Of a stretch of 64,000 nt of DNA, positions 16,530 through 60,585 are shown piece after piece. Numbering within the stretch: the first letter of the stretch is position 1; each line of letters starts with the position of its first letter. A program made the translations under genes and the position numbers. The notes under the pieces were generated by a model. The model was given only the letters and a program-made list of their open reading frames with translations, was not told the origin of the DNA and did no database searches. Source of the stretch: Psammoneis japonica (lineage: Eukaryota); assembly GCA_008632985.1 (NCBI GenBank), contig QPGO01000039.1, forward strand, positions 310,001 to 374,000. Reading direction: 5' to 3'.

Positions 16530-16559
16530 TAGAGAGTGGGTTTGGGAAGGAAAAAGGAT

Positions 16560-17968: not shown

Positions 17969-18005
<37 letters not shown>

Positions 18006-33959: not shown

Positions 33960-34199
33960 GCAAAGATCAGTTTAAAAAGCTCTTGCGGTACAGTAGCATC
34001 CGTAGCTCTTGTTTGCCATGCGGCTCGCCGGATTCAACGTAGGGTTGTCCCGTCGTCCCGCCAAGAAACAAGTGCCTTCCCAAGAGAACCGCGCGTCGGG
34101 TACCGGTAGTACTGGCTTGTGCAATGTCTAATAAAAACAAACACACAATGGTCATTTAGTAAAATAATAAATTCTAATAAAGTAAATCTTAACAGATGC

Positions 34200-36780
34200 G
34201 GCTCTTGGTGGGCGTGTTTGTGTTTGCGTGGCATTGTGCTGGCAACTGGGTTTGACATGGGGGAAGTTGGATTGGGGGGAAACAACGTGGGCCACTCCTT
34301 TGTTGCTGGAGAGTCATGCCTTCAGATGATGGCACTCAAGCTTGTTGCTGTGGCTCAAAAGAAAAAAGGCCGAAATGAGAAACCCTGGGCTGGGCTGGAC
34401 TGGACAGCAGCTGAGGCAATGGGGAATCCGCAACAATGATGATCTGGAGAGCTGCGTCATCGTCTTGTCCGTCACCATGGTCTGCAAAGTGCAACCTGCC
34501 ATTGTGACAATTTAGAAAGCACCTTGCCCTGGATGAAACCTTTGCAGGGCCATCTGTGGCCATTGGGTTGCCCTTCACACTGCTTGTGCATGCTCGACTG
34601 AGACTGTGATGAATGCTGTGGAAGTTGGAGAGATTGGTCAAGAGTCAACGGGCATCATTCAGGCCTTGGCTGACCTTGATCCAGATGTCAACACCGTTTG
34701 CAGGTTAATTTGAGACTGCCAGTTGGAACTCAAGAGTGAACCCACTTCATTGAAGTTTCTGACTCTCCCCAAACTGTGCTCACCATGCAGTGCATGATTT
34801 GTCACACATGTGGAAAGTGCACGCTGGGGTTTGCTTTTGTGAGTGACAGTTTCCAGCTGCATGAGTCTGACATTTGGCAAGCCTGTTTTCCCAACAGTCA
34901 CCCCACGAGTTGAAACTTGTTGTCATCATTTGCACCCCATGGCTTGTTTTTCAAGAGAGAGGCACTCAAACACAAAGATTTGGGGTCGCACACACAGGTG
35001 ATGATGTCTGTGAAACCTTTGCCTCAGTCAAAGTAGAGACTTCACAAACATGTGGCATTTTCACTTTCAATGTTTGCATCATGAGGTCAAGAACTCTCAA
35101 AAGGCCTGTCTCAGTCATGGTCATCATGATGGCCAAATGATGGAGATTCTTGGAGATGTGAGAAGGTGTTCCAGGATGACAGAGTTTTGCAGCAACAAAG
35201 CAATGGCATGCATGATTGACAGCTGCCATGTGATGTTGTCTTGTGGTCAACATCCACAGTGCCTGGAAAAGATGAAAGCCAAGTTTCATTCTGCTGACAA
35301 AGGAGCAATGAATTTGGACATCATGCCAAACATGAAAAATGTGCTGAACAAGTGCAGCAAACAGTTTGGTTGAAATGACAGCATTGGCATCTGAGCAAAA
35401 CCATTCTCAAGCATGTTCCTCCAGCAGTTGAAGCAATCTTCCAAAGCAGCATGTGTGAACAATTTGGTGCTCTCTGCTGTGAGTCAGTCTTGTGGTTGAC
35501 TTGTTGCTCAATTTGTCACAATCACAACTGCTTCTGCAATCATGCAAAAAGTGCCATCCACCATGATGGCGAGAATCATCACTGTGACACAGCACTTTTG
35601 CACTGCCGCAAGTCAGTCTCACAGTTGCCAGCACAGGCAGCATTCAAAATCTGTGAGCGAAGCTCCCTGCTGGTGTTCAAACCATTTTTTTTTCATGTTG
35701 GCACCCATGCACAGTGTGTCAGGAACACATGGGACAAGCCACACATCACACATTTCCTGTCTGGTGGCAAGGCACAAAAGGGACACACAAAGGTGAGCAA
35801 TCCATTCCATTGTTTTCTCTGTGTTGTTGACTGTGTTGAAAAGATTTGAGCACAAAGACTGTGCTGAATGTGAGGAGTGCTTGTGGTCCGCAGAGGGGGG
35901 TTGTCTCAGCCTCACTCAAAGTTGAGATGTGAATGTGCACACATGACTGTCAAAACTTCTGTGCTGCTTGCACAAGACAGGTGGACAACTGGGCACAGGA
36001 CTCATCTGCTGCCTCAGATGCCCTCAATTGCCTGCCAGGGTGATGCATCAGAGGGACAAATGTCATGACCAAATGATGTGCCCGTCAATGTTGTCAATGA
36101 TTTTTTGTTCATCAACCTCTCCTTGGTGCTCAGTGGGGGCAGACAATTGTGTGCTTTTGGAAGTGCCGCTGCCTTGGCCGCTCATGATTGCCTGCCAGGG
36201 TGATCTGCCAGAGGGCAGATGTTATGACCAAATGATGTGCCTGTCAATGTTGCCAATTGTTTTTTTTTTGTCATTTGTGTGCATGGTTTGGGTTGCCACC
36301 AATCTTCTCATTTTCAACCACCAGCCTGTCTTGGCTTTCAAGGCTGCCCTGTGATGTGTTTGTCCCCCCCCCCCTCCCACACCATCATTGTGCAGGAAGA
36401 AACAGGCAGCACAGTGGGTGGGAGAGCACCCCTCCATCATCAGCTCAGTGTTTGCGGTTTGCTGAAAGCACCTTGCAGATGCACGAAAGTGAAAAAACGC
36501 AACAGATGAAGAGTGTGAGGACATCGTCCCGAGAGAAGAGAAAAAGTCTTCTCCTGCTGCTCTGTCTTTTTCATGACAGCAGGTGCACCTTCTCAAACCC
36601 AACTTAGAACAGGAGGAGATTACCAGAGAAGAGGAGCAGTCCAACATTGTGGACCTGTTGGCTACAACATGCTCTTTTTGGCCGGCAGCGGCAGAATGTG
36701 CCCTGCGACGGACAGAACTCATGGTTTTCCACGTGTTCAGGAACGAACACACCACGCACCGCAGAACAAGAACAACGACA
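34200..36780. mobile_element. Unclassified decayed repeat block
   Basis: Strongly TpA- and CpG-depleted, no credible ORF, with an 80-bp direct repeat at 36027-36105 and 36187-36270. Confidence 0.55.
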
Positions 36781-36854: not shown

Positions 36855-38246
36855 ATGAGCTCACCATCAGCGCAAGAGGAACAGAACGTCGACGTTATTA
36901 TCGTGGGAGGAGGGCCGTGTGGTTTGACGCTCGCAAAGGGATTGTTAAATCAGGGATATTCGGTGAAAATCATTGAGAAAGATCCTGTGGATTTGAAATC
37001 ACACGACTGGTCCAAGGCATACTCGTTTCGTATCGATGTCCGAGGTCTCAACCTGCTCAAGTCGCTGGGTATTTACCAAGAATTAACAGAGTTGGGTGTC
37101 AAGTCCGAGGGATTCAAAGGCACAAAGTGGATGCCAGACGGTAGTTTTGATGTGTTGCCACCGAGAACTTTGGGAAGCGTGGCGTACTGGATCATACGGC
37201 CCAAATTCCTCAAGCTGTTGAGTTGTGCCATTCCCAGTGAGACCATAAGTCATGATGAAGTAGCCGATATTCGATTTGACGACGGCTCCGTGTCGGTCTC
37301 GACTTTAAATGGCAAGTCATATCGTTCCAAGTTTCTTTTTGGTTGCGACGGAATTCATAGTCACGTCCGGTCGACGCTTGAACGTTCTGTAGACCCCGAT
37401 TATAAAATCCACAAGATTGACTGTCCCTCTTCTGGATTTGCCTACAGAGCCACCTTGTATGATCCGCCAGACTCTCTAGACCCTGATGAGATCTACATGA
37501 TTATTGGAGAAACGGGTGACAAACTCACATTAATGCCCGTTGGCGGCGAGAGAGGAGTCGCGAGGCCCATTGCGGTTGCAAAACAATCTACGTTTCGAAT
37601 TTTTCAAATCAAGAATCCAGACGATCTTTACGATACTCTTGATAAGGAGTTTCCTCAACTTCAAGTGCGAGAACGACTGAGCGTTAAATCCGCTCAAGCT
37701 TGGTGTTGCAGTGAAGGGTCGACGTTTCCTCGCCCTCGATGGGCTGGCAAGGCGTGTGGCGTACACAAAGGGGTATTTGTGTGTCTCGTGGGAGACGCAC
37801 TGCATTGTGTGCCTCCGGATTTGGGACAAGGCGTCAATAGTGGGTTTGTAGATGTGCAAGTCATTCTTGATTTCATGAAAAATCGACAAGAACTCGCACT
37901 CTCCTCCTCCAACGTGGACGCCCTGAACAATGAGCTTGTCTCGGAGGCGCGTGCCTTGTGCCAAATTCTTCCAATCGGCATGCCGTATCAATACAACCAA
38001 CCCTTTTCGATTCACAAGGTGCTTTTCTTTGCTGATTTCATGGCGCGCTTTGCCCTCCATCGGCTCGTATCCAACACCTGGTTCCACGCGCCAGCCATTT
38101 TAGAAATCCAAGACGATCCACCCAAAAAGTACACTACGATTCTAAAACATCATTACCAGACGAGACGTCGCATGTTGGCACTCGTCGGATCGATAACGGT
38201 AGTAGCGATAGGAATCTGGAAGCGGTGTGGAGGACAATCTAGATAA
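36855..38246 (+). CDS. FAD-dependent monooxygenase (kynurenine 3-monooxygenase-like)
   Basis: DVIIVGGGPCGL, GCDGIHSHVR and LVGDALHCVPPDLGQGVNSG motifs; C-terminal TM; likely start MSSPSAQ. Confidence 0.9.
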   Translation: MSSPSAQEEQNVDVIIVGGGPCGLTLAKGLLNQGYSVKIIEKDPVDLKSHDWSKAYSFRIDVRGLNLLKSLGIYQELTELGVKSEGFKGTKWMPDGSFDVLPPRTLGSVAYWIIRPKFLKLLSCAIPSETISHDEVADIRFDDGSVSVSTLNGKSYRSKFLFGCDGIHSHVRSTLERSVDPDYKIHKIDCPSSGFAYRATLYDPPDSLDPDEIYMIIGETGDKLTLMPVGGERGVARPIAVAKQSTFRIFQIKNPDDLYDTLDKEFPQLQVRERLSVKSAQAWCCSEGSTFPRPRWAGKACGVHKGVFVCLVGDALHCVPPDLGQGVNSGFVDVQVILDFMKNRQELALSSSNVDALNNELVSEARALCQILPIGMPYQYNQPFSIHKVLFFADFMARFALHRLVSNTWFHAPAILEIQDDPPKKYTTILKHHYQTRRRMLALVGSITVVAIGIWKRCGGQSR

Positions 38247-38753
38247 ACGAAGTGGAGACTTAAGAGGCGGTCCGAGCACTCTTATAACTACGATACCGTC
38301 AGGTGTTAGGGTCTACCGAGTACTGTAGGTTGATTGAAGCAATTACTTCATCTTGGATCCAGATCCATTTGGAAAATCCCTCAAGCCACTGCGCCACCGG
38401 ATCCTAGCAGGCCCAACCATCACCGGCGGAAAAAAAGAAGGGCTCAATCGCATGGTGACTCTCTGCGTTGATTTCGTTCCTCAGACGTATAAGAGTAAGG
38501 GATTGGTTATTTGCCTCTGGGCCACGTTCATTATGATCTATTTCGCCTATTGTGAGTGTTATTGGGGGTGGGGGTTGTAATTCTTTTCAACAAACAAGTC
38601 TCTTCTGACAGCTGCTTTTCACACCTCAACTGAACGTAGACTGGCAGTTTCGTTTCGACTATGAGAATTTTCATTCATACGAGGCCCGCACCAATTCATT
38701 TCCAGTGTCGTAGTAAGGCTGCTTCGATTTCTATCTTTGAGGTCCCTTCATGA

Positions 38754-42250: not shown

Positions 42251-43670
42251 CCTTGGTTTGTTTGGTGGCTAGGTTATTTCAAATTAATGAGATGATTGTT
42301 GTTGTGTTTTGTGTTGTGTGCTTGACGCGCCGTGGCCGTGGGTCGTGGGGCAATGGGTAAAACGCGATCGCAAAGTTTGCCGCAGTTTTTCAATCGTGTT
42401 TTCCGCATCTCAAAAACACGGATTTTTTTCATGCTCGGCTGGCTTGGCCAATCAGATTTCGTGACAAAGTCCCGTTTCATCATCATTGCATCATCATTGG
42501 CGCAGTCCACAACTCGCCAGCATTGCCATCCATTGCATCTCCTCTGCAGATTGTGCACTCAGAAGCGCACAGGCATTTCCACCCAATGCAGCTCTTTCAT
42601 GTGCAGAAGCGACCCTTGCAGCACTTTGCAAGTTGACTGAGGAAGATGGTGTGCTTCAGCTGCTGCTGGCTGACAATTGCAAAGAGGGAGCTGCAATTGG
42701 GTGCAGCATTTGCAGGGACCAGGTGTCACAACAGCGAGGGCTGTGGATGCACGCTGTCACAGTGTGATGTGCAAATGTGCGTGTTTCTTTGAGGACATGT
42801 CCTCACTCCAAGGCTCCCCTGCAAAACTCCAGCTGCTCAAGTGTGAGTGGGTGCAAGCAACTTGAAAGCTGTTTTGACTGTTTCCAAGAGCAATTTGGCA
42901 GCACTTTGGTGGCACTCCATGCACGCCACTTGTTCTTGTGCAGAATTGCACATGAAAAAATGTCGTGGAAAATGAGAGCAGCAAAGAGGCAGTGCAAGCA
43001 GGTCAGCCAACAATGATGAGAGCAGTCGAGAGATGCAATGGCAAGTGGTGGTGCAAAGTTGTTGCAAAGGGCAAAAAAGATGCACGCCAGTTGGCAAACA
43101 TCTTGCAACAATGAAAAGTGGTGCAAACCAGCAGGGGGTTGAAAGTTGCACACTCACAACAAAAACCAAGGTGTTGCCCTGCTCTGCACTGAATGGCGCA
43201 AGCAAGGATGACAGCACACTTCACAAGTGCAATGTGGCGCATCGCACACACATGCACACGTGCATGCTGTGTGAGAACAACTTGGGATGCAGATCTGGAA
43301 ATGTGAAGGGAAGACATTGCACCGCTCCTCTGGGCACTTGGAGGGGCCTCATTTCCCTTGGTTCACACAGCAGCATGGGCAAATTGAGGTGGCAATTGAC
43401 TGCAGCTTGAGTGTGACAACAAATGCTTTTTCTCTTGCATCCACAGAAGCAGTGACACAAGAACATGTGCAACATTTCCAGTCTCTTGCTCCAATCTGAG
43501 GATGAGCATCTGTGAAAAATTTTGCAAGACCCAGGTTGAACACCCAACCACCCTCCCCACATGAGTGCCACACAGCAGTGCAGCCACACCCAACAACCGC
43601 CAGCTCGTTTGCACTTTCATCAACAGACAGTTGTCAATTTTCACACATCATGTGCCTGCACAGTGCGCTG

Positions 43671-44017
43671 TTTGCTGATTTCATGGAGGGCTTTGCCCTC
43701 TGTCATGTTGCACCCAACACTCAGTTCCACACACCAGCAATTGTTGAAATCCAAGACAATCCTCCCAAAGAGCACACACTGCAAGATTCTAAAACACCAT
43801 GATCAGATGAGTTGTTGTGTGTTCTTGGCACTCAGAGTTAAAGCTTGAGGGGCTGTCTGAGCCGGCATTCAACAGACCAAGAGCATTCAAAATCAGTCAT
43901 TTGCCAGACTTGTGTCCAGCACAGTGCCTTGAGGTGTCACAAGTGATGCAAGTCAAAAGGCAAAAAAAAAGCTTCATCTTGCATCCAGATCCATTCAGAA
44001 AATCTCCCTCAAGCCAC
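43671..44017 (+). pseudogene. Mutated duplicate of the 3' end and 3' flank of the monooxygenase gene
   Basis: 43671-43833 aligns with 38028-38183, and 43972-44017 aligns with 38346-38390. Confidence 0.85.
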
Positions 44018-44789
44018 AGTGACCTGTGATGCCACATCTCGGAATGCCAAGATCCATCAGTGGCGTGCCTTTTTTGTGGACTGGAGCTTCATCATTGAGA
44101 TCAAAGCCATCAAGCAGTGACTTGAAACTGCAACACTGGATCCCAGAACATGGAAACACGTCAGTGCCAGCATTCAAAACCCGAGAAATTGAGTTGGACA
44201 CACTTTTTTGTGGACCGGAGTCATGTGTGTCATGTTGGTTTTCTCATCTTCCAATGCGATTCATCACAAAGATCAAAACCAAGAAGCAGTGACTTGAAGC
44301 ACATGTGACCCAGCATCAATTCTGCCAAAATGGGACGCAAGCTTAAAATTTTGTCATGCATGGGAAATGGCGCAAAAAAGGTTGTCATTTTCGAGAATCC
44401 ATGATTTGCATGAAGACGCGTCGTCAAGGTGCGTGGGACGGCTCTGTTTGCAAACAAGATGCATTGGGTCCATGACAGAGGTGTGCCAACCTTGGCACCA
44501 CGAGCGAAAAAAGAAGATGATGTGCCGCGGCACAGGCAAATCCCATCTGGCTGCATGCTTGTGATGCATCCATGTTCCATTTCCTGTTGCATGTCGAAAA
44601 GTGTGAAGGGTTCACAAAGAAAAGCAACTGGACTGCAAGATGCTGATGAAGGACAAATTGGTTGACTCGAGCAACGATTGAATTCATCTTCGAACATGAT
44701 GTTGCGGTTTTTCTACGGCATCAATCGGATCCTGGATGGTGCTTGAGAGTGCAGCTGCATGTGCCCCAGTTCAAATCAAAGAATGTTTT

Positions 44790-45640
44790 AAAGCCTGCTT
44801 GCAAGAAGGATGAAATCGCATCCCTCAAGTCCGATCTCCCCATCTGTGTTTTGAGCAACGATGCACAGCTCCTTGTCATGCGCAGCAGCTCGAGAATCAC
44901 GAACACTGAATTGCGAAACAGCGTCTTCGCAGCCATCCTTGTCTGTGTCTTCCATCTTCTGAAAGTCAGACAGTGGGGAGTTGTTCCCTGGTGTGCCAAA
45001 CCTCACTGTTTCCAAATCGATGGTCCTCACATCAAGCTCTTTACTGCCATGAATTGCAACGGTGAATCTTGCGTTTTTCCCGTGCCTGATGAAGTCAGTG
45101 GCATCCTCGGCTGAATGTCTGTCCTGACAGTGAGCTTTTCTCCTCAGTGTTTGTAGCACACTTGTGCCCCTTCATGATCAGGAACGTCATGGCATTGGCT
45201 TCCCGCATGGCAATGCGATCCCCATGTCCCAACATCACCATCTTGTTAAAGCCAGAAAAGCAACTTGCACAGGCCTTGTTGCGACTTCCTTTAACGTCTT
45301 GGCCAAGTTGCATCCATTCTGTTCCATTGCACTCGAACATTGTTGCACGCCCTCTTGTCGGCAATTAGAACATGCAACAGCAACCCGCTGTCCATCACTT
45401 GAAAGTGACAAAGCGGAAAAATGGCCGTGACATGGCAAACGTCGATCGAACAACGGTGAGCCGACCCTTGTCCACGTCGAATTGTTCCACTCAAAGACGC
45501 ACGCGCTTTTCCTCCCTCTTGCCCCAGACATGACAATGCGGCTTCCGTTTTGGGACAAAGCCATCCAATCTCCAATGTCGAAACAAGTGTCAAGCTTGAT
45601 CCACATCGATTCACGCAATTTGAGCTGACCCAACTTGTCT
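44790..45640 (-). pseudogene. Decayed FG-GAP-like propeller gene fragment with a C-terminal Dx(D/N)xDG-containing domain
   Basis: MALSQNGSRIV, ACVFEWNNSTWTRVG, LSLSSDGQRVAVA, FECNGTEWMQLGQDV, VAIHGSKELDVRTIDLETVRFG...DTDKDGCED; frameshifted. Confidence 0.75.
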
Positions 45641-45649
45641 GTCAGCCAT

Positions 45650-46260
45650 TTCTTCCGGGACAATCCTGCCATGGCCAAGACCTTTCCACCATCTTGACAA
45701 CACTTGTGAACCAACTGCAGCAATCCTGGAGTGTCTCTCCCTCATCTTGCTGAATGAGCATCAGCTGCTTCCAAGCACTGACCGCTTGCACATGCGCGGA
45801 CCTTCTCATTTGCATCAAACAGCACCAACTTGAGGATGTCCAACAGTGCTGCCACATCCCACTCCTTCACAATCTTTGCGAACCCCGCCACTCCTTCAAG
45901 TTTGTGGTGAACAGCCTTGGCACACTGTCCCACAATGACATTGAATGCCTTCACCTTCTGCATCTCATAGACTGCATCTTGTTTCATGCAGTGATTGCAC
46001 TGCTTCCCCCAGATTGCCTTGTTCTTCTCTGATGCATTCTGCCCAGCTGGACACTCAGGCTCCACTGGTTTGTTCTCTTGCCTTGGCAACACCAATGCCT
46101 CCATCTCTGGCCCAAACACTCTGCCAATGCACTCGCCAATCTTCTTTGTGGTTTCTGTGCATCCATCTGTCTGTCGTCCTGACTTGGCAATGGTGTCATG
46201 CACCAACTCCTTCAATCTTTTGTGTTCCCGCACTCAGCTGCATCTGTGCCCATGGCTCAA
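45650..46260 (-). mobile_element. Copia-like gag N-terminal fragment (third family)
   Basis: TETTKKIGECIGR...KAFNVIVGQCAKAVHHKLE...DVAALLDILK. Confidence 0.7.
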
Positions 46261-46269
46261 CCAACTGAT

Positions 46270-46760
46270 CTCACTGACCAATCTCACCAGAGCAACACCA
46301 AACAATGCAACCTAAACCACACCTTCCTTCAGCAGGCATTGACTCTTGCAAATTTATGACCATCATGAGGAGCAGACACGCGGATGGGCATTTCTGTCGG
46401 ATGTCATCTGCATCTCTTGGCTCAAGTGTGTGCTCTTTCTTCTTGTGAATCAAGATCTTGTTTTGTGCATGAGAGTCAAGGCTTGCCATCAGACATGAAC
46501 AGAACATAAAATTGTCCTTGTTTAAGAGGCAGGCTCTCTCATGTTCCTCAATCTGCTCCACAGTGAGCTGCCTGCATGGTTCAATTATCCATGAGATGCT
46601 TTCTCTCACTGTTCTTCTGTTCCAGGTCAAGATTGACATCAAGGAACAATTCTTTTCTCAAGAAATCCATTCTTTGCCATGCGCTGTACAACACATTTTG
46701 CTGATTGTGGCATGAGCCGTCTCACAAGAACGGATGGACATGTTCAGAGCAAAGGCTTTT
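46270..46760 (-). mobile_element. Copia-like gag fragment (fourth family)
   Basis: QLTVEQIEEHERAC...DNFMFCSCLMASL...PSACLLLMMVI. Confidence 0.6.
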
Positions 46761-46999
46761 TACCACATCTTCCAGAACACCATCCATGTTTGTTTCCCCA
46801 ATTTTCTGTCAAGTCGATTTTGGGCAAAAAGCGTTCATTTGGCAGGCCAGAACGCTTCTTGTGTAAAGAATGCATGCGCGAAAGACTACATTGGCTGCCT
46901 GCCAGGAGAGCTGCTGAAGATTCGGTCTCCACCAACATCATCATTGTCACCAGTGCAATCTGCTCATTGTTCTGCAGCTCACCCGCCAAGAGGACCGAT

Positions 47000-49900
47000 T
47001 AGAAGTGCGCACCAAGTAAACGGTGGAAGGTGCGTTTCAAGACGTTTTCTCTAACTGGTCGCCGGGCCGCTAGCCGGCGGCAAAAGGGCGTGTGTTCATC
47101 ATTGACTTCTCTCCTGGAACGAACAGGCATCTACAGCAATCCTTCATTGGAGGAGCTGAAGGCTGCAACGGTGCACCAGGAGCTGCACAAGTCAACTCAA
47201 TGTACAAAAAAACATTGCTTTTTCTCCATGGTTGGATGAATTCTTTTGCCATCTTTTGTCTTTCCTGACTTCGTCTCGATTCCCGAAGAACAAGCGTCAT
47301 GATCCCGATCACCAAACAGCCGATTTGCAATCAGTCGGTAAAATGCTCCCACCCACTTTCGCTCTCTGGTGTCACAATGCGAGCAGAGTCTGTCTCGACA
47401 TTGGTGGTCGGGCTAAGCGGCGCTGCCGGCACAATCAACGATGAAGGGATTTCCTGTTGTCTGGCACGACGCTTGTGCAGCTGAAGGGCCACCTCATTCG
47501 AGTTGAGACTCATGTGATGGAGGCTTGCAAGCGGGTAAAACCTTGCACCCACATTCAATGTGTGAATGATTGCACGCTGCTTTGGCCATCAACCCCCAAG
47601 GGTCCGGAAGGGGTCGCCCTTCTTCCGAATCCAGACGCAATTTCAGCACACGTCCGAACTTCTCGGGGTCGCTCAGCAAATGTGGAAGACGTGCCCCGCG
47701 TTCCTCTCGGAATGCATTTGTCAATTCCTCATGCCACCACCAGACATCCCTCGGAGTGGTCTCGCTGTTGAGAGATTTCGCATCGGTTTCTCTGTCTTCG
47801 TTCACAGTGACCATGGTGGGAGCAGGCTGCTTCTGGTTTTGCTTGTTCTTGCCACTGCTTGCTTTTTCTTGCCTTTCTTCTTGTTTGTTTTCATTCCATT
47901 GTTTGCACCGTCGCACTTGTTGCCTGCATGATCAGAGATTGGGTGCCCCGCTTAGGAGCGAATGAGCCATCGCCTCGAAAAAGTGGCCAAGCACCTTGAG
48001 ACCATGCCAACCTCCTTCGGGTCGCAGGTGCCAGACTTGTCATTTTCCGCATTGTCAAATGAGACCAATCAAACTGGGACAAAACTGACCGACACATGTC
48101 GGCCACAGTTTTGTCCGTCCCCAAAGCGACAAGAACAATGACCTCGCAGGGAGTGTTTCCATCCCAGTCCTTGAGCTCTCGAGGGTCAAACATGGGATGA
48201 TGAGCATCTGAGGTTCGCCGTCAAAATAAACCCGGTGATTTGACTGGAGAGTTGGGAAGTTGTGAACATCATCCGCAGACAATTGTTCTTGTCTGAATTG
48301 CCCCCCATCATACGAAGAAGCCTCACTTGGTTTCTTTCGTCTCCTGCGAACCCTTCGATTCTCCCAGTGGCTCCTTCTGCCATGTGAACCCATCCGGACC
48401 ACCGATTTCGAATCAAGAAAGATGTGGCCTTCACAAGGTCGGTGTTGTTGTCAAAAATCCCTTTCTCTTTTCTTGAATTGGCTGTCACTCCCCAGGGTGT
48501 TCATCCAGGGGTCTTGAAGGACACCAGACGTTTTCTTCCCCGATGCCGTCTTGATGTTCTGATGAAAGGGGGGGGTCGTTTGTCGACAGATCCTGTCGAA
48601 TGATTCCATGAGTTTCGTCTGAACTGGAATTTGAGAGTGCAGGATCTGACAAAGGCACTTGGCATCTACAAAATGCTCGCCATTCATTCGAAGGTCCTTT
48701 TCAACAAGCTCTCTTGCATTGACAGCAACCCGTGAGCAAACGTCATGTTGGACGGAGACAAGGTTGCGGATTCTAGCTGCTTTGAAAGAGATCCAATCTT
48801 TCCGCAGTGTTTGCCTCATGGATTTCTCCATGGAAAGCTTCCTCTCCATCGTGTTGACTCGGTCTTGCGCCGTCTCTGTGTCCAACAATTTCTTTTGTTG
48901 TGTTTTTGTTGTTTTGGTCGCACTGTAAACTGCAATCGTCAATCGTGCGGTGTCTTGGCCTCGCCAATTTGACAAGGCGCCTGGACGTCACCGCAAACTG
49001 GGAAATTCCGCAGGGAGAAAATGGAGAATTCTCTACACATGAAAACATTGACATTTTGCACATGACACACAATGCCACGAATTGCTGAACAATTGCACGA
49101 TGCACGTGCCCGAAGGGAGATTGTTGCTTCGGGCACGAAATTCGAGCTTCGTGCACGTAGAGACCGTAGAAAACACACCAGCATTCGAGAATGTCCGATT
49201 TGTGTAGATCACGTGCATGTGGCACAGCACCACAGAGGTCATTGATGAAATTGCTGCAACGACTCATGCGACCACAATGAGATTTTCAATGCCATGTGCC
49301 ATGTAGAATGGACATCTGCACGAAGGAAGAATGTTGCTTCGGGCAACGACATTCGACCTTCGGGCACGTGCATTGCGCAATTGTTTTGCAATTTGTAGCA
49401 CACTGTGCGTGATCCTTGCTGTAGAGCCTTGTGACAAGCTAGTTCTGTGCATCCACGGGTGGGCAGTCACACAAAATGCACAAATGACTGCATGCCCGAA
49501 AACCGATTGGGCAACGGTCATTTTGGCGAGGAATGCCAGTGCATTTGTACAATTTGTGTAAAAATGTTCATGATGTACAGAGGGGCGCGCGGTTGTTGCA
49601 AACTCGGCCCATTTTTCACTCCAACGGTCAAAATGCTTTCTCAAGTCACGAAAATCATCAAACAAATTACATGGATCGAAAGTTCAGAATCAGAGCTAAA
49701 AATCGACACAGGTGTGTCATGTGCTGCCTGAGAGTCTTCATGCCTAAATGAAGCCACAAAAGCAGTGCGCGCGAAACCAAAAATCGAGCGAAACGCGATG
49801 ATGAGACGTCTCATCCCGGTTTGCGTGGGATTGTCATCGTTGCTCTAATTCGCATCTTGCTCAGATCATCCTCAGTGGACATGTGAACAACAGCAGCTTC

Positions 49901-52900
49901 AGCAGCATGAAAAATGCCTCATCTGGGTGATTTTCATCACCACGAAGCACTCCATTGTGGACGCATTCCAGGTCTGGGTGGGACCTCGCACTGCTGAACT
50001 GTGACATCGACAGTTTTTTGAATCACATCGCATGTCGCGCACGTAGATTTCTACGTGATTTTTTCTGCATTTTGTGTCATTTTACGGTGCACTCATTGAG
50101 CGATCCGTCCAACAACTTTTGACATTTTTCATTGCAGCGCGATTCTATGATGTCTTAAGAATCGTGCAGGGCAGGCGCATTGGCAAAAACGTCGAGTGGC
50201 AAGAGGCATGATTGTGCCACACAAACTTGGCCGTTTGTTTGATGTTGAAGACAAATGCACCCATTGACTGAATTCTCGCACTGCGGAGCTCGCACGTAGA
50301 ATTCCACGGGCCCAATGTCACACGGAGTCCCACCCAGGACTGGAACCCGTCTGTGGCGCCGCGTGAGCTCACGTGAGTGAAAATGTGACTCGACGTTTGT
50401 GAGCCGCCAATGTCTCAACAACCACGTGAACAACAATGAAACCACTGCACAGCACTGCTCTGCATCATTCACAGAACACGTTTGTCAACTCAGCCATGCG
50501 ACAGAAGCCATTTTGAAGGATGAGAAACGTTTTGCATCAAGGCACTTGAGTCATGTCAAAAGCACAAAATCTTCTTCACAGTGCAACAGTGAACATCCAT
50601 GCGAGCACAAGAGCAACCCAAAAACCCCAACTTGGCATTGTTCTTCATTGTCCATGCAACACATTCGGCCTCTTGCCAGTGTGATGCAACCATTGTTGAA
50701 GGACGAGACACATTTCGCGTCAAGAGGGTGCATTTGTCGTCGAAATCATGGTGTGTGTCAAAACTCATTCAGAACTCCACGAGGATTCGCTGCCCGAGAT
50801 TCGGGCCTTCACCGGTTGAGTGTTCAGACTCAACATTTTCATTGATGGTTGGCGTCAATGGTTTGCCGCCGACTGCCATTGCAAAAAGGAGATTCTCATG
50901 GTCAGCTCCATTGGCGATCCATCGCTAAAAAAGCGCGCGAAAAGTGCACTTTGGTTTGCATCAACCCCACGCCCCTCTGTGTGGTTTGTCTTTTAAACAA
51001 TTGTCCTCACTTTGTTTTGGTGTCACAATGCTGAACATTTCTTTCCTTTGGTTGTTCTCCTGGCACACATTCCTGCACAATTTTGTGCACAACCTTTTGA
51101 TGGTTGTCAACGCTTTTGTTCGCCTAAAACAATGTTCATGAATGTGATGGTTTCCGTTGGTGATTTTCCGTTGGCGATTGCATGTGCTGCCTGCTGCCAC
51201 GAACCAGCAGTGTTTTGCCCCAGACGAAAAACATCACTCTGCATCCACACGGCACACCGCATCTGCGCAACTCGACCTTTCTTGTTGCTTTTGTTGTTTG
51301 TTGTTTCTTTCTCTCTTCTAGTCTGCTCAGGTGTGATGCACCACATCCAATGGTCCTTTGCCAAAAGGACCGCTCCTCTTTCATTGTTGCCTTTCTTTCT
51401 TTTTTTCTTTTTCACTGTGTTTTCCCATTCGGCCCATCAATGCTTTTGTGCGGTTGGCGCCGTTGCAGCTCTGCATCTGTCGTTTTTTGCTCTTTCTTCT
51501 TTCTTTCTTTCCTCTTGCTTCTTGCCATCTGCATTTTTGCTTCCTCTCTCTTCTTTGTTTCATCTTGCTTCTTGCCATCTGCATTTTTGCTTCCTCTCTC
51601 TTCTTTGTTCTCTTTTTTTTCTTGCTGCCTGCATTTTTGCTTGCTCTCTCTTTTTGTTTTCTCTCTTGTTTCTTGTTTTCGTCGCTCTCTCCTTTGCCCA
51701 TTCTCTTTCTTTTTCTCATTTCTGCCAATCCTTTCTCTTTGTATTTTTTTGTGTTGTCCCCATTTTGACGTTTGGTGCAGTGCAATGAGTGGCCACTGTG
51801 GTGCCCCCACCCGTGTCAATCGCTCCAAGCGGCTTTCTCGATGGGGCCAACCGCCAAAGAACCGACATCTGGGTGCGGCTTTTGTTTCAAGTCCTGCTGC
51901 TGCTTTTGGCCGTGCAAGCCTGTCTGCCGCTGGCACCCCCTCGACAGACACGAAAGCACCCTCACTTTGTCGTCGTTCTTGTTGGAGTGACCCCAACCAA
52001 GTCAAGGCAACTGCTGGGTCTGCCACTGCTGGTTCCACTGCTTCTGCCAGCCCATCTGCCAATGATTCTCCCACAACAGCCAGCAGCTCTGCATCATCCC
52101 ATCGTCGTTCTCGCTGGAGTGACCAACACGCAGCTCCCGCCATTTCCAGGCATGCTGCTGCTGCTTCCCTGGCGTCCACTGGCCCATCTGCCGCTGGCTC
52201 TCCTTGATGTTGACCAATCCCACAGGACACAATGGTGTTCCGCTTGAGTGACCGACATGTGGCTCCCGCCATTTCCAGGCATGCTGCTGCTGCTTCCCTG
52301 GTGTCCACTGGCCTGTCCACCGCCGGCTCTCCCGTGATGGTGACTGACCCCGCAGGACACAATGGTTGTTCCCGCTTGAGTGACCGACACGCAGCTCCCG
52401 CCATTTCTGGGCATGCTGCTGCTGCTTCCCTTGTGTCCGCCAGCTCATCTGCCGCCGGTTCTCCCATGACAGCGACCAATCCCACAGGACACAATGGTCG
52501 TTCTCGCTGGAGTGGGGCTCCCTGTCGCTAGATGGCCCATCTGCAAATGGTTCTCGTCATTTCCATCGGTCTCCAAAACCCAACGTCTGAAAACAACATG
52601 CCACCATTTCTGGTTCATCATCCAGAGGCTCCTCCACCGCTTCTCGTTCGGTTCCATCGACCACATCTACTCCTGTCAGGTCTGCCAGGTCCATCCCGAG
52701 CCATCGTGATTGCAGTTCACGCACTTTGAGGAACACTCTGTCATCAAGGCATGACCTCCCACCCCCTCCTGTTGGAAACAAGCGATCTTCCTCTGGTGCC
52801 TTTACGTCAAGTCACCGTTGGAAGCGCAGTTGTCGAGTTGATGTGTCTGCTTCTGGGTGCGAGTCTACAACCTCAAATTCCTCGTTGTCCACCAGATGCA

Positions 52901-54200
52901 ATGGCAGCCCACCTGGCCAACGCCAGAATTCTGCATCCACCTCTTCCTCGCCCATTTTAGAAGGACAGTTTGGCCCTCCTGTGCATGCCGGGTCATCCTT
53001 TTTTGGTGACGACGAGTCTTGCACATTTGATCCTCTGGAGGTGGATGACGACTCCAACGATTCTACCGACTCAGAAGAATCCGAACCTCCCATGTTGCAG
53101 GCCCAACAACAGGGACATCAATCTCTGTTGGAATCTCATGATGCAAATTTCAGAAGGTGCTGCCAAGTGATCGATTGCTCTTCCTCCGAAAAGCCCAACG
53201 TTGCCTGCGAGGACATGTCCGTTGCTTGTTGCGACGAAGACACAGCGCATTTTCGGAAAGCACTGTTTTCCATGCAGATGCAAAACAAGGACCCACCCTC
53301 CACTGCACTCAAAGCGAAGCATCCGGGTGAGCACTTTGTTCTTCCGGATCCTGACATGGCTTTGCTGTTTCCACGTGGGCACACTGGACTGGCTGCAATG
53401 ACCAAGCCTCGCTGCAATCCCCATGGTGAGGTTAGAATCGAGGACCAAACTTGCCATCTGTCGGAGGCCAATCGTCTTGGTGTCGATGTAAAAACTTTGG
53501 AACCGGGTCGACTGCATTCCGCAGTGTGTGGCGATCAATGAGTGGTGGCGGTTGTGGATGACGATGAATGGTGTTCTCGCATCCGCTCACCAGGTCTAAA
53601 GCAAGTTTGGCGCGATTTTTGCCTTTGAGAGAAACCCGGTTGTCCAGGTCGACATCAGGTGCCCGTCACCGGAGAACAAGGAAATTGTGAAGTGACGGTT
53701 GGATCCAGTGGCGACCACAATGGAGCAAGAGGAGAAAACGGCATGTCGGTGCCCCAGTTCAACAAAGGCACCAAGCGCTGTGCACCTCCAATGGCCAAGC
53801 CAGGCAAAGCGGATGCGTCAATGGCTTTTTTGTTGCACTTGCTCTTCAATGCGAACTTCGGCCATGGGCGTTCTTGGTTGTGGAAGCATCTCCGGCAAAC
53901 AAGGGAATTTGTGCTCATGTTGCCGCTCACGAACCAGAAGGAAAACATCTCCAGCATGAAAGCAGCAGCATTGGTGCGTTGAGAATCAGTTTCCGAGAAA
54001 GAGCCAACGGCGTGCGTGCGGTGTTTGTCAGAGGAAAAAGGATCCGTGCTGCCTCCTCTTGTTGTGACGAAAGATGTTCATGGATTTGTCGGGAACCATT
54101 TGAGCCAATCTCAATGTCAGGTTGCTGGCATCAATGGTTTGATTGTGAAATGCATTTGTCACCAGTGCTTGCGTTTGCAGTTCTGCCACTGTCTCCGGCA
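47000..54200. mobile_element. Decayed TE-associated accessory ORFs (minus about 47.1-48.95 kb, plus about 51.8-54.0 kb), possibly part of the adjacent MULE
   Basis: Broken protein-like frames almost devoid of Tyr; TpA-depleted; no domain recognised. Confidence 0.45.
52105..52520 (+). repeat. Tandem repeat, about 130-bp unit, just over 3 copies
   Basis: GCTCCCGCCATTTC recurs at about 52133, 52262 and 52393; encodes SRWSDxHAAPAISRHAAAASL. Confidence 0.9.
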
Positions 54201-54242
54201 ACAAAAACCATCATGTTGACATTCCACCGGTGTGCCAACCCT

Positions 54243-57125
54243 TTAAGCTCTTTCCTGCTGACGGTGACACTCACAAAGACACCCCGGAACTCTGTGTTGA
54301 TGAACAACACAAAGGCAACAACTTTCCCCGAGGTGGGCTTTGTTGGACCCAAACGCATTGCACGCCGGCAACGGCGGTGGAACGGTCCCGGGGAATGCTC
54401 CAGAATAATCTGGCGGGATGCCTTGCAGGACTGTCAGTTGAGACGGCATGGCCGATGCTTGAAACAAAGCAGAAGGAGCAGACGGAACAATGGGCCATCC
54501 CGCGGGGTCAATGACAGGTGGTCTAACTGCTGGAGTTGTTTGGCCGGCATGGCCACTCTTCGATGGTGCAGCCTTGCGTCGCTTCTTGGATGCTTCTTCT
54601 TCACAAGCTTTGATGTCAATCTTCATTTGGTTGACTCTCTCTTGGCGGGCACGTTTTCTGGTGGGAAGCTTGGTTGACCGTGATTGGATGACATCTGCAC
54701 ATTGCAGGATGGCGGCATGTGGGTCATTCATTTTTTTTTAGAACTCTTCGCAGTCTCCGATGAAGAGTTTTGCACCATCGGCCGACTCTGTCACTGTGAC
54801 TTTGCACAAACCATTGGTCAGTTTGTGCAGCAACTTGTGGTCTGAAGCCGATTCTCCATGGGGGAACCCTTTCAACGCATTGTGGCAGCCCATGATTCGA
54901 ATTTTGTCAATCATGTCCCCAACGCAGTCTTGAGTGTTGACGAGACACCCGCCTTCGTATGTTGCAATGTCGCGCTTTGCGTCTAGTCAGCCGATGTCTG
55001 CCAACACATCGTTGGTCAGCGCTTTGTCTTCGTCCAACATCCCACACCTCCGTGAAACAGTGGACCGCTCTAGTGTGTGGGTGTGGACCATGGACGGAAG
55101 GGACGCATTCAGCACACGGGAGAGGGTCACGCCAAGGGGAATCAAGCCATTGATGGACTGCGAACCCTTCATTTTGAGATTCATCCTGTGAAACATCATG
55201 TGTGAGCATGGACCCAAATGATCAAAACTGTCCTGGGCAACAACAACCAACTTGCCTCTCGTGAGAGTTGTTCTGTGGAACCAAACCGGGCTCCCCGAAA
55301 GACGTGTAGCGCCAGTTCGCGAAGTCGTCGTCGTTGATGTGCTGTTCTGCAAATGCATCCGCCAATTTGGTTTCGCCTGCCTTCCTCCATGACTCGAGCA
55401 CCATGCCAGACATGGCATGGAACAACTCTGCAGTTTTGCACCGGTGGAGCATCCTCACATCATGGATGGCAACTCTGGACAGGAAAGTCGTGTCCTTCAT
55501 GCACTTCTGGCATTGTCCGTTTCCTTGCCTCATGAAATCTGTGCAGAACTTTTGGAGGATGTGAGGACAGCATGTGCCTCTGGGATTGTCAGGGTGCAAC
55601 AGCTCAAAAGCACTCGAGAATGCTTTCGAGTGATCCGAGCAAAGTCCGCCTGCAAACTCCAAGTCGGTTGTCCCAAACAAGTCCGACGCCGCCTTTTCAA
55701 AGCACAGAACATCAACACGGCACCTTCTTCGTGCTCTCCGGTGGTCAAGCAGCAGCAAATTGGCTTGAACGTGCTGGAGCAGCAATGCTTTCCAGTTTTC
55801 TCTCGTTTTAAAAAGTCACTCACGCCGAATGCGATGAGAACAAAGTCATTGCAGACGACTCCATGAGTTCCATCTATTGTGCCAACCACACGGTGCTCTG
55901 GGTTGCGACAATCACAGATGTTTCACAACAGACCTGGGGAGGAGAAAACAACTGTGTTGTCCCTCGCTCCCAGGAAGGGACCCTTCGGACCTTTTCTTTT
56001 TCAGAACCTGGCTTCTGACTTGCCTTGTAGTTCGGTCAACCGTTGCTTGACATTGGTTGGCAAGTCATCCGGCTGGAACAAGCAGAACATGTCTGTGTGT
56101 GGCACCCCATTTTTGCTGTGACGCTTGCCTCTTACACCCCTCGCGTGCAGCCATTTGGCCTTTTCTTTCATGTGGACTTCCAAAGAAACGGGTTCTGCAT
56201 CGAAACCCTCTGGAATCCGCAAACCCCATTTCCAACAGTGGGACACCAGGTCTTGTGTGTACGAAATTTTGGTGTTGCATGCTTTTCTGTCTTGAAGAGA
56301 GTTTTCGGACGCAGGGTGTGCCGTTGTTGCCACCTCTCTTCATCTCTGTGTGATGCAGTGGCAAATCTTGTTAGAAACCTTGTCGCGGAGATCCTGCATT
56401 TCGAACAACTCGGACACAGACGGATCTTCCGAATTTGAAAAGTGGTCCACAGTTTTTCTCTGCATGTCCTTCGGCGGTGCGTTCGGGTCGCTTTCCATCA
56501 TGAGCTGCACATGCAGTTTTGCCACAGGAGGAAGACCCCTCGAGCCTTTTGCGAGAATGTGCTCCCGCCAAGTTTGGGGTTTGTGACCATCATGGCCACA
56601 TGTCACTTCCAACTTGCAGGGGCCAGTCGACGGTGCCGCGACAATGTTTGCTTTGAAGCGACAACCCGGTTTTTTGCAGCTAAATTCGCTGACCACAGGA
56701 ACAGAAGGATCTTTCTTCTTCTTGAAATTGTTGTCATTGCGGTCGGCTTTAGCGTCTGGGCCTAGAAATTGTCGGGCGGCTGCGAAGGAGGGGAACAAAT
56801 CTCCAGGGTGCGAATCAAGAGCAGGGCTAGAATCGTCAGCTTCGGCCGAGCGAGATGCCATGTTGGTTGAAGAATTGGGCACGCCGCCCTTTTTGACTTG
56901 CTCCGCTTGAACAGCATTTGGAGCATGGGATGGTTCTTTTCCCGGCCAGATGCACTTGGCTCGCTGGGTCACAAAGTCGTCACAAACCGAGGCAACGAGT
57001 TGCTCGGCTTTGGGAGAGGGCATGAGCTCTGCAGCATCTGTGACAAAGTCGACTCTCTCCATGAAAGCCTTGGTTTGTGGAGAGAGAAAGTCTCTGGGCT
57101 CCGTGGCAGCCTTGCATGCCACCAC
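54243..57125 (-). mobile_element. Decayed Mutator/MULE transposase
   Basis: N-terminal GDLFPS...CKKPGCRF...HDGH finger; catalytic-domain motifs TIDGTHG, PICCCLTTGE, CSDHSKAFSSAF...P...TCCPH and PQNNSHER; frameshifts and stops. Confidence 0.8.
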
Positions 57126-59334
57126 ATTGAGGCAGGCATCCCGGTTGCCACCTTCTCGACCCTTGTGCCAGGAGATGGCAAGGGTGGCTTCCCACCATCA
57201 GGCATGAGGGACCAAAAGGAGCCGAGTGCAAACACAAACAAGAGACCATGCAACATGGTCGGCAACGAAGAATTGTGGGAAGGATGCTCAAAAGGTGAGG
57301 CCGAGGCCGATGCGGACAGGGAATCGGGGCCACGTTGGAGGGAAGTTTCCCGCCAAAACTGAAACTTCCCGCCAAAAAGCCAAATCCCACAGAAAACCGT
57401 TGTTGCAGCACATTTTCGACAGTTCAAACAATTGCTCTGTAGAGTCACTGTGTTTTGCATTGCACGGGAAATTTTGAATCGAGTCCGTTCGGGAAGATTG
57501 GATTTCTCCGTCCTCCTAAATGAGCACAGGAAATGAGCGATTGAAACATCCAAGTAGACTGCGATTTGGCGAGTGGCCATCAAAACAGAAATGCCAATGC
57601 TGTGGTTGTGCAAAACCGTAAATTGTCAGACGGGCGTCCAGCTCGTTCAAAAACAAGAGCCAGCAAACTCGGACCCTCACTCATTTCTCACACTTTCGAA
57701 AGAGTTGAACGCAAAGCCGAAGCTGCAGCACCATGACGACATTCAACAAGAGTGGAGCCAATGGCAAAAGGTGAGAAGGGAGTGGGGAAGAATCTGTTCA
57801 TTGTGTGATTTGCAAATGAAACGCTCACTCTGTCTTGCAACCATTTGCATCGAACAGACCCGCAGCCGCGTCAAAATGGAGGATTGTCAAGATCTCGAAA
57901 GTGCTGAAGCGACCCAGGCAAAGACCAAGAGCAGCCATGGCATTGAGACGTTTGTCGAGGGACTGTGCAGGATGGAAGGTGGTCGCAACGAAGAACAAGA
58001 AAGCTCTGGAGGTCTGAAGGCTGCATCGGCAGCGATCGGCTCAAGGTTTGATTTTGGGTCGCCGGCGAAGACATGGGTGCATCCAATGCAGACCGGGCAT
58101 TTGTGTGTGATGCATTGGCAGTTTGTGCTGGGCAAGGAGGAGGCTGGTGTGCTTGTGATTTCAGCGGCGACGGTTGTTGTTGTCATGGTGAGTGCATCAT
58201 TTTTGGTGGTTTCTGCGCGCAAAACAAACGTGACTTGTCTCACACTCATGCCTGGTTTCTTCTTGTCCAAATTTTCAAACATTTGTGCAATGACCAAAAT
58301 GACCCATTTTGTCTTAATTTGTTGATTGTTGTGACAGTTCACAGTTGCACAAATGACCATTTCGCAGTTGCACATGACGAGCTTTTCAGTTCATGTCGAC
58401 CGCCTCGACGAACAGAAACATTTGTTGAACAGCCCCCATTTTAAAACAAGACTGAACAATCATGTGCAACATGTCGTGCCAACCACGCAGGAGTGTGCAT
58501 TGTGCCGGCATGACAATTTGGTGCAAGCACGAACAGAATGACCATTTATTTCTTCTAAGAAACCAGACAAAATAAACTGAAAGGACTGAGGTGAGCGCGC
58601 AGCTACATGAAGTTTTGAGTCCCGCCTGCTCGGGACTCGTTGACGCTTCCATCTGGACACCGCGGTGCACCGTGGGAAAAAATGACGACGGGTGCGACAA
58701 TGGCATGCCGATGCAAGTGCCTTTTGCTGGCAACAATGTTCACTGCACCTGATCAGTGTTTACAAATCACCTGTGCCCAATTGGTCCACTTTGTGCATCA
58801 GGTGCAGCCGATTTGATGAAATGGCACCAAAACAAAGAACGATCCACGCAGCGTTCGATGACGCGACAAAGCCACGGAAAACGTCGTCTCTTGTTGGGCA
58901 TTGGGGCAGTGCTGATGCTTGGTTGACGGAATTGAAGCTGCAGGGTGTGGACAAAGATGTCACGGTGACACAAATGAACGAGAATTGAAAAAGCATCCCG
59001 AACACGGACCCCATCTAGAAGCTCCACGACCCGGTGCCAAGGTGCGTGTCGTGAGTGTGTCGAAAAGCGTCAAGATCAAGAACAAGAAAAGCAATCGCAT
59101 CTCCAATGCTTGGCATCTCTTTTACTTTGTGTCCCCGTGCAAATCGTTGGTCAAATTGCCATGTGAAATCCCGCGGCATTCTTGGCAGCAAACGCACAAT
59201 GCGAGAAAGATTGGTTCTGTGTCAGCACTCACACACGCCAACCCGGCAACACTGAGTTCCAAGCTGCCCAATCTCCTCAACACCAACCTGTGAATGGAGA
59301 AGAAGGGGGAGGAGACGACAGCACTCGTGTGCAC

Positions 59335-59550
59335 AAATCTGGCGTTGCCGAGTCCCAAGCTGCCAAATCTGCCCAAGCTGCTCAACACCAATCTGGCATT
59401 GCCGAGTCCCAAGCTGCCAAATCCACCCAATCTGCTCAACGCCAATCCGGCATTGCCAAGTCCCAAGCTGCCAAATCCACCCAATGTGCTCAATGCCAGT
59501 CCGGTGTTGCCGAGTCCCAAGCTGCCCAATCCACTCAATGCCAACCTGTG
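59335..59550. repeat. 54-bp tandem repeat, 4 copies plus a partial upstream copy
   Basis: GCCGAGTCCCAAGCTGCC at 59347, 59401, 59455 (variant) and 59509. Confidence 0.95.
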
Positions 59551-59980
59551 AACAAAGGAGGACAAGAAGAAGAAGAAGGAGGAGGTGAGAGCAACAAGTC
59601 ACACGGAAGGTTGATGCACTGGAGTCCGAGGTGGCTCGCAAGTTTCTCAACATTCCAAGCGGTCACGTCCGAAAAAAAAAAGTGCCACTTGCCATCAAGA
59701 GATTGCAAAACCACTGTCTGGCAAATTTTCTGACCCCAACCTCCTCCTGGATTCATGTCATCCATCCCGATTTTTGCCATGAGAAGTCGAGACGACAGAT
59801 TGGACATTGACGGCTAAAAATGCAGTGTGGAACCGCAACAAAGCGACAAGTGCCTAAAGCTTTCAATGACGAGCAAGAAAAATGCAAAACAGCAAGAAAG
59901 TGTTGCCAGTTGCTTGCGTTCAAGGTGAACATCATCATTTTTCACGGCAGCAAGTTGTGAGCTCCACAAATCACACACTG

Positions 59981-60585
59981 CTCAGAGCAGAAATCAGCAC
60001 AGACAAAACCAGTGGTGCTGCAGGAGCTGGTGCCGCTGTCGCAGGTTTCCTCCCACTTGACACCAAAGCACACTTTCTGACACATGACCCCTGTTTTCCA
60101 CTCTTCACGCGCGTGCGCAGAACTTGACGCTCATTCGCGTGGCTTCATTCCTCAACTCTCCCTCTTGACGGTGATTGTTTTTGTCACGCGGCGGGCCTCA
60201 TCATCACTGAACGAGGGGGTGCCCGGGTTGGCCGTTGTCCGGGGAGACATTGGGAGCAATGCTGCCATCAGGTCGGGTCATTGGGGTTGTCTGTCTGCCT
60301 GCCTGCATGAGTGTGGCATGCACGCGGTTCTCACGCGCCAATTTTGGCCATGAAGCAGACAGAAGGGCGACTCGAACCTGAGGCCGCAAAGGAAGGTTGG
60401 GCTCACAACCACTCAGAGCAGAAATCAGCATGGACAAAACCAGTGGTGCCACAGGAGCTGGTGCCGCTGTCGCGGGTTTCCTCCCACTTGACACCAGTGC
60501 ACACTTTCTGATGCACAGTCCCTGTTTTCTGCTCTTCACGCGCGTGCGCAGAACTTGACGCTCATTCACACGGCTTCATTCCTCA
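59981..60585. repeat. 174-bp direct repeat (59981-60154 and 60412-60585)
   Basis: Direct alignment by eye. Confidence 0.95.

Follow-up and report, generated by a model that had tools for sequence, protein, structure and literature searches.

Position-dependent loss of TpA in a decayed monooxygenase gene copy and in TpA-depleted blocks of a diatom contig

Within a 64,000-nucleotide window (G000:C37:310001-374000 of a 91-Mb eukaryotic assembly), a decayed piece of the 3' end of a monooxygenase gene lies 5.6 kb downstream of its parent, in the same orientation, and is depleted of TpA and CpG, whereas the TpA and CpG content of the parent gene is normal. This difference, pointed out in a first-pass annotation, is real, correctly polarized, and one-sided. 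Here and in other gene copies along the contig, TpA is lost, mostly to CA and TG, in the copy and not in the parent, and according to where the DNA lies. We consider it probable that this reflects a position-dependent A-to-G change at TpA, accompanied by a slower CpG decay, in silent blocks, through steps of chromatin, methylation, and enzyme action that we infer. The pair consists of the following features.

36855..38246, plus strand: parent gene, FAD-dependent monooxygenase, an intron-free frame of 463 amino acids from the methionine at 36855 (PF01494, E 3e-24)
38028..38183, plus strand: parent segment A, source of the copy core, codons 392 to 443, with 6 TpA and 11 CpG
38247..38428, plus strand: parent 3' flank, significantly duplicated at 38346-38389 and weakly in the remainder
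43671..43833, plus strand: copy core, matching 38028-38183 (75% identity, E 1e-24), out of frame after a 4-base insertion near 43778, with 1 TpA and 0 CpG remaining
43834..43971, plus strand: copy middle, probably parent 3' flank after deletion and decay, of marginal homology
43972..44017, plus strand: copy of the parent 3' flank, matching 38346-38389 (89% identity, E 7e-9)

The parent frame has a second, upstream methionine at 36798, and the best relative of its protein is from Seminavis robusta (name as given by the source; 58% identity), which marks the genome as diatom-like. Beyond the gene, a segment at 38406-39309 has paralogues on C34 and C7, at 80% (sharing 23 TA) and at 71 to 75%, all of them TpA-normal.

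The first-pass annotation had described 43671-44017 as a copy of 38028-38390. Two significant pieces bear this out, identical together at 164 of 200 aligned bases, but they do not form one continuous match, and the middle is marginal: for its 162 parent and 138 copy bases, the score obtained with transition-lenient scoring was reached by 3 of 500 shuffles, while that obtained with neutral scoring was reached by 173 of 2,000 shuffles and by 75 of 2,000 real block stretches. Because of this marginal homology, the middle was omitted from the core dinucleotide counts. To the right, the copy extends weakly to about 38428/44065; upstream of 43671, homology was not significant (134 of 500 shuffles). 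No extra copy of the monooxygenase 3' end besides 43671-44017 was detected in the genome. The copy is not an assembly error. One contig of the X1 run spans 43608-44334 with 4 differing letters, none of which falls within the two aligned pieces, and another spans the parent with 1 differing letter; X1 is possibly the assembly's own sample and hence not independent support. As to the origin of the copy, an old tandem duplication of the monooxygenase together with the neighboring FG-GAP gene was rejected: no DNA of the block matched 39800-42300, and the gene relic described below is 33% alike (E 0.065).

All base changes quoted in the first-pass annotation were found at their positions, namely, GTA to GCA (38067 to 43710 and 38129 to 43772), cacgcgcc to cacacacc (G to A at 38088 and 38090), and gacgat to gacaat (38115). 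Over the 156-bp core of the pair (38028-38183), all 11 CpG were lost (4 to CA, 4 to TG, and 3 by transversion; binomial p = 4e-7), as were 5 of 6 TpA (3 to CA and 2 by transversion; binomial p = 0.006), one of the TA-to-CA sites adjoining the 4-base insertion. The sole surviving core TpA lies in CTAA at 43789. Other core dinucleotides were kept in 131 of 178 cases, with 47 lost. The full stretches hold 22 TA and 23 CG in 362 bases of the parent, against 2 TA and 1 CG in 347 bases of the copy; with the middle included, 16 of 18 aligned TpA were lost, 12 (lenient scoring) or 9 (neutral scoring) of them to CA/TG. Over 395 bases, the copy has 2 TpA where about 23 are expected (p 4e-8), and the 1,271 bases to its left have none. 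By itself, the pair is thin evidence for TpA, with 6 sites and 3 transitions; what it shows most clearly is a loss of CpG, as ordinary methyl-cytosine decay produces it. The core also contains 4 CA/TG swaps, only one of which (H402) is polarized to the copy, and these could conceal losses on the parent side. Being old and short, with CpG loss as its main feature, the pair illustrates the process modestly.

Comparison with 9 orthologues gave the direction of the changes, and the CA/TG states did not turn out to be ancestral: at informative codons, the orthologues carry the parent residue. R398 is found in all 9 (G in the copy) and Y426 in 8, while the H of the copy, produced by TAC to CAC, is found in 0. 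Likewise, D421 is present in 5 orthologues, H402 in 6, and A412 in 3, the corresponding N, C, and T of the copy being present in 0; K425 is present in 7, and the E of the copy in 1, the sole appearance of a copy residue. Y426 corresponds to site 38129, and D421 and A412 correspond to CpG-to-CpA sites, while V405 (site 38067) falls in an unalignable stretch. Judged by these residues, the parent state is ancestral. Since the residues compared are selected sites, they give direction and say nothing about selection.

Selection on the parent, which the first-pass annotation had offered as an alternative, was assessed at synonymous sites and in the 3' flank. Synonymous TpA was kept at 4 of 12 sites in the duplicated part of the parent (30/101 in the whole gene), compared to 300/1035 in eight other frames of the window, and synonymous CpG at 7/13 (71/136 in the whole gene), compared to 656/1574. 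The duplicated 3' flank holds 11 TpA in 183 bases, an observed/expected ratio (o/e) of about 1.0. The equal loss on the parent side that would have contradicted the first reading was thus absent, and the claim that only the copy had changed stands as far as one-sidedness and the normal TpA of the parent are concerned, with 6 sites as its TpA evidence in this pair. In five parents that have copies in blocks, taken together, synonymous TpA is kept at 83 of 260 sites, which shows no synonymous loss relative to the baseline (p 0.36). A gradual two-sided process would have marked the synonymous and 3'-flank sites of the parent, although n = 12 is small for this pair. Normal synonymous and flank TpA make selection on the parent unlikely as the sole cause; a purging of whole silenced alleles would be traceless. 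Ordinary genes shun synonymous TpA as well (T before A, 196/633, versus 583/961 before C or T), so that TpA loss may leak into genes at a low level.

We called blocks with a two-state model on TA across 464 kb of the contig. TA o/e was bimodal, and 39 depleted blocks made up 198,179 of 464,000 bases (about 43%). Four of them lie in the window (6689-13846, 15935-18166, 34191-36604, and 42286-60952). Two of these, and two elements next to the copy, are as follows.

34191..36604, no strand: second TpA/CpG-depleted block, TA o/e 0.02, CG o/e 0.19
42286..60952, no strand: block holding the copy, TA o/e 0.09, CG o/e 0.68, a patchwork of repeats and dead host-gene pieces
45238..45620, minus strand: FG-GAP/beta-propeller-like host-gene relic, 3 TA and 23 CG in 383 bases, labeled from a weak likeness (E 0.065) to the neighboring FG-GAP gene
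45620..46250, minus strand: high-copy repeat, probably LTR-retrotransposon gag, 150 of 150 scored matches (237 candidates), with TGA as nearly every internal stop

The relic has lost its TpA while CpG is largely kept; its entry into the block therefore probably postdates that of the monooxygenase copy. More coding-like text continues from it down to about 44800. No close parent of the relic was found in the assembly (other matches, 28 to 44%), which may be incomplete and in which old repeats may escape detection. The gag label is a lead only, the nearest named clusters scoring 0.79 to 0.81, and a Pfam search with the repeat at 45620-46250 and the other block frames submitted gave no matches.

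The description of the copy as embedded in a transposon block proved loose. The nearest high-copy repeat shown is about 1.6 kb away, and the near flanks are almost free of repeats: with common words skipped, nothing else matched the 1.3 kb on the left, and the 1.6 kb on the right matched twice over 120 bases (on C2 and C315). Short direct repeats occur right of the copy at 44069-44300 (44088/44260, 39 bases, 85%; 44069/44203, 18 bases, 94%). Between the end of an Spb1-like gene and the promoter of the monooxygenase gene, the block at 34191-36604 takes up the gap, and each of the two genes lies within about 250 bases of a block edge. The parent start codon thus lies about 250 bases past the end of a depleted block, and distance by itself is not the rule.

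A self-comparison of the 464 kb yielded 106 alignments with both members inside blocks, 92 with both outside, 36 inside/outside, and 9 mixed. The 36 inside/outside alignments and one mixed pair were analyzed. In these 37 alignments, TpA was kept at 88 of 563 sites, with 188 changed to CA and 180 to TG, while CpG was kept at 368 of 749, with 293 changed to TG/CA; because the classes were set by TpA density, such one-sided pairs are ascertained, and the 106 both-inside alignments are unpolarizable. When the monooxygenase pair and a repeat family were removed (9 alignments), TpA was kept at 59/505 sites, and the reverse change from CA/TG to TA occurred at 21/1760. At 80% identity or more, 48 of 228 TpA were kept, along with 250 of 366 CpG.

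Three lines of evidence are free of this ascertainment, namely, duplicates outside the blocks, gradients within single copies, and the relic without a twin. Outside-block duplicates at 88 to 98% identity keep their TpA (e.g., 22/24, 20/21, and 12/16), as do the window segment 38406-39309 and its 80% paralogue. Gradients were found in the copies of two gene pairs.

G000:C37:245938-248483 (L081): GDPD copy; parent at 231607-233211 (L080)
G000:C37:560344-561501 (L106): copy of a GLUG-motif gene, young (92%); counterpart at 545561-546723 (L105)

In the GDPD copy, which is disrupted by three stops and by an insertion of 1.2 kb, 19 of the 20 TpA of the first part are gone, as are nearly all of about the next 6, and then 14 of 19 are kept (rank test, p 5e-4), the loss fading about 150 bases beyond the insertion. 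Near its ends, the insertion shows an overlap of 3 bases and an inverted match of 100 bases. The GLUG-motif copy keeps 0 of 22 TpA and then 10 of 19 toward the block edge (p 3e-4). In both copies, the ends that retain TpA show greater, not smaller, divergence at other sites. Of the four pairs tested, a third showed no gradient (p 0.24), and the value for the fourth, 238907/248964 (p 0.29), is void, the pair having been read in reverse. Lectin-like gene copies are also mutated in blocks, like these two. Same-strand runs of changes were seen in one of four pairs tested, the GLUG-motif pair (p 0.003). Overall, these data supported the view that position, rather than sequence, homology, or selection, decides TpA loss. 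The first-pass annotation had concluded that targeting follows chromatin domain or position and not transposon sequence; its positional part is probably right, resting mainly on these other, better pairs, whereas its chromatin part remains conditional.

Apart from gene copies, there is a family of 392-base repeats about 90% alike (window 49960-50351; G000:C37:198575-198966, 174833-175222, and 230571-230960). Each member retains 6 to 12 TpA, CA/TG swaps are numerous, and the members seem to have been mutated separately after insertion.

The A-to-G changes depend on the preceding base. In the 37 alignments, background divergence included, A changed to G at 385/1126 sites after T, compared to 135/2278 after A, 120/1824 after G, and 208/2121 after C; in young pairs, the values were 157/456 after T, 34/947 after A, and 29/787 after G. 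At sites where strand choice can be discriminated, the YTAY strand was the one changed from A to G in 112 cases and the RTAR strand in 41 (p 8e-9), and the TpA surviving in blocks are mostly YTAR, the survivor of the monooxygenase copy being CTAA. In one 92% pair, 18 of 23 TpA were lost by transition, versus 1 of 21 CpG. As TpA loss outpaces CpG loss, two separate processes are indicated.

Put together, the account that we favor would run as follows. A piece of about 400 bases of the monooxygenase 3' end would have been duplicated, without change of orientation, to a site 5.6 kb downstream and ended up in a silent block. DNA of such blocks would be mutated in place on both strands by a fast A-to-G change at TpA (TA to TG or CA, best at T-A-pyrimidine) and by a second, slower decay of CpG to TpG or CpA. 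Exposure would be set by the location of the DNA and not by transposon identity or the possession of a twin, working genes being spared even 250 bases from an edge. Of this account, the data themselves show the mutational spectrum, its direction, the unaffected parent, and the dependence on position. The blocks would be repressive, CG-methylated chromatin, and CG-methylated transposon islands are indeed described in diatom genomes (PMC9998398, as far as its text covers them). CpG loss would then result from deamination of 5-methylcytosine and TpA loss from adenine deamination by a TadA/ADAT-like host enzyme, the last being a step on which we are about evenly divided. According to the relevant part of PMC10586758, TadA prefers U-A-C-G; by analogy, this fits the T-A-pyrimidine signature without constituting a test of it. 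That a host DNA adenine deaminase of this type, acting at T-A-pyrimidine, is steered by repressive chromatin and not by homology or foreign origin, so that anything in or beside a silent block would be rewritten, is put forward only tentatively.

Profile searches of the genome gave 9 deaminase-family matches (PF00383), including a TadA-like frame in L110, and 27 C5-methylase matches (PF00145). No chromatin-binding fusion was seen in the frames read of the 9 deaminase-family matches, and neither these nor the methylase matches are linked to TpA loss. One frame combines a deaminase domain with a 2OG-Fe(II) oxygenase (L112:313-1785, minus strand, on G000:C79). The 27 PF00145 matches are above expectation for a few single genes, and the C5 DNA-methylase frames L122 to L124 (G000:C301 and C297) themselves lie in TpA-erased DNA (1 to 7 TA per kb).

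Among other explanations, the change at TpA could be position dependent and yet stem from error-prone repair or replication (for example, by a Y-family polymerase at T:G mismatches) or from a miscoding modified T or A, which we judge unlikely. The occurrence of TpA and CpG losses in the same blocks agrees with it, and so does the lack of anything unusual among the deaminases in the genome profile matches. The preference of polymerase eta for WA predicts raised AA-to-AG change; A-to-G change after A is no higher than after G in young pairs (34/947 against 29/787, versus 157/456 after T), and such background levels disfavor a WA-type polymerase. The precedence of TpA loss over CpG loss (18/23 versus 1/21 in the 92% pair) also speaks against the repair or replication route. 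In its favor, a double-stranded target is atypical for TadA-type enzymes as these are portrayed in the portion of PMC10586758 concerned.

A process like repeat-induced point mutation (RIP), hitting both copies upon homology and followed by purifying selection that cleared mutated parent alleles, is very unlikely. It would suit two linked direct repeats 5.6 kb apart, a parent conserved among orthologues, the four core CA/TG swaps, which are compatible with independent hits on either side, and the RID-related DNMT4 that diatoms carry (PMC9998398, in the passage on this family). Against it, parent synonymous and 3'-flank TpA are normal, here and in four other parents; in linked duplicates at 90 to 98%, TpA persists in both members; within a dead copy, segments of equal homology fare differently; and a gene relic without a close twin has lost TpA too. 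RIP of Neurospora and Leptosphaeria, including its leakage and DIM-2 branch, does share with the present process dinucleotide-specific transitions that ruin repeats and sharp compositional blocks, as outlined in bioRxiv 10.1101/344036 and PMC2973834. In the sections of these sources that deal with its spectrum and trigger, however, RIP changes C to T, chiefly CpA to TpA, and so makes TpA, which here is removed (CA/TG to TA, 21/1760), and it mutates repeat copies upon homology, whereas parents and outside-block duplicates (88 to 98%) are spared here. RIP requires RID/DNMT4 or DIM-2 and is limited to the premeiotic stage. The process is not RIP, having the opposite spectrum and no homology trigger. 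The contrast with RIP drawn in the first-pass annotation holds for the spectrum and the spared parent and was overstated otherwise: RIP also spills by position, as a gradient, into single-copy DNA near repeats (PMC2973834 and bioRxiv 10.1101/344036, in their accounts of leakage), and position dependence alone thus cannot separate the two.

That the copy is an ordinary pseudogene, decaying by methyl-CpG deamination under relaxed selection with its TpA loss due to chance, has little to commend it. The signal of the pair is strongest for CpG loss (11/11), just 3 TpA transitions occurred in the core, and background divergence is high. Yet chance does not readily account for the 1,271 bases without TpA to the left or for 2 TpA instead of about 23 in the copy, and CpG decay leaves TpA intact, whereas contig-wide pairs lose TpA faster than CpG. 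CpG decay occurs in pseudogenes, and an excess of CG to TG/CA marks the silent copies here (8 of 11 core CpG by transition; 293/749 contig-wide). Such decay in methylated transposon islands, as far as diatom CG methylation is treated in PMC9998398, would likewise turn CG into TG/CA in a dead copy with an intact parent; it leaves the faster TpA loss unexplained. Ordinary decay is refuted for TpA by the contig-wide pairs and is likely the account of the CpG part.

Least probable of all is capture of the fragment by a mobile element, with editing as RNA or cDNA during retrotransposition and targeting that follows the element: the gag-like repeat 1.6 kb away and the same-strand runs in one of four young pairs (p 0.003) are in line with it, while the copy, for which capture was tried and rejected as an origin, is single and near its parent, its surrounding terminal repeats are not convincing, changes to CA and to TG are equally frequent and occur side by side within pairs, and the gradients sit inside nonmobile gene copies.

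Returning to position-dependent A-to-G change at TpA, the closest known system is that of Bigelowiella natans, in which integrated NCLDV and virophage DNA undergoes TpA hypermutation (Mettrop et al., bioRxiv 10.64898/2026.01.13.699255), to whose main account the following comparison refers. Both share TpA-to-TpG/CpA changes on both strands (here, 188 CA and 180 TG out of 563), A-to-G change confined to the TpA context (here, 385/1126 after T), and regional, long-term clusters poor in TpA and rich in CpA/TpG (here, 39 blocks and a bimodal TA o/e). Single-copy DNA can be mutated in Bigelowiella, and the relic at 45238-45620 lacks a close twin here, in an assembly that may be incomplete. An ADAT2-like adenine deaminase is proposed, by inference, there too; here, there are 9 PF00383 matches. 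In Bigelowiella, moreover, the de novo rate is elevated about 1000-fold, and the process is active in only some of the lines. Unlike the viral DNA targeted in Bigelowiella, the targets here are host-gene copies and retrotransposon-like repeats; 198 of 464 kb are affected, compared to 124 clusters in the Bigelowiella genome, and CpG loss accompanies TpA loss. The T-A-pyrimidine preference and the edges inside single copies belong to the present data and not to that main account, whose supplements may hold flanking-base data. By analogy, the process may be a variant of the Bigelowiella type in which the viral-target feature fails, a common enzyme being only a candidate. No diatom report of TpA hypermutation was found within open-licence PubMed Central and bioRxiv, a scope outside which most subscription papers lie.

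With these findings, TpA hypermutation is no longer confined to viral inserts in a single chlorarachniophyte but also takes in about 43% of a contig stretch in a diatom. Host-gene duplicates are affected according to their landing place, which limits which duplicates survive, and repeat dating and annotation are biased, since TAA/TAG stops and Tyr codons vanish. The context fingerprint and the parent/copy pairs provide a means to seek the enzyme and its guiding mark in a genetically tractable group. If true, a chromatin-steered deaminase would be a natural A-to-G editor of the genome and a chromatin-guided inverse of RIP that SAR algae only distantly related have in common.

Lastly, the assembly was compared with X1 for changes within blocks. 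Leaving out two transversions, one adjacent double, four multicontig rows, and one five-base run, 12 single-contig block transitions remained among 40 of the 175 listed differences, namely, 6 CG versus CA/TG, 2 TA versus CA/TG, and 4 others, all unpolarized and too few to use. The two TA versus CA/TG differences, at window positions 43438 and 46314, are an unpolarized hint of recent TpA turnover.
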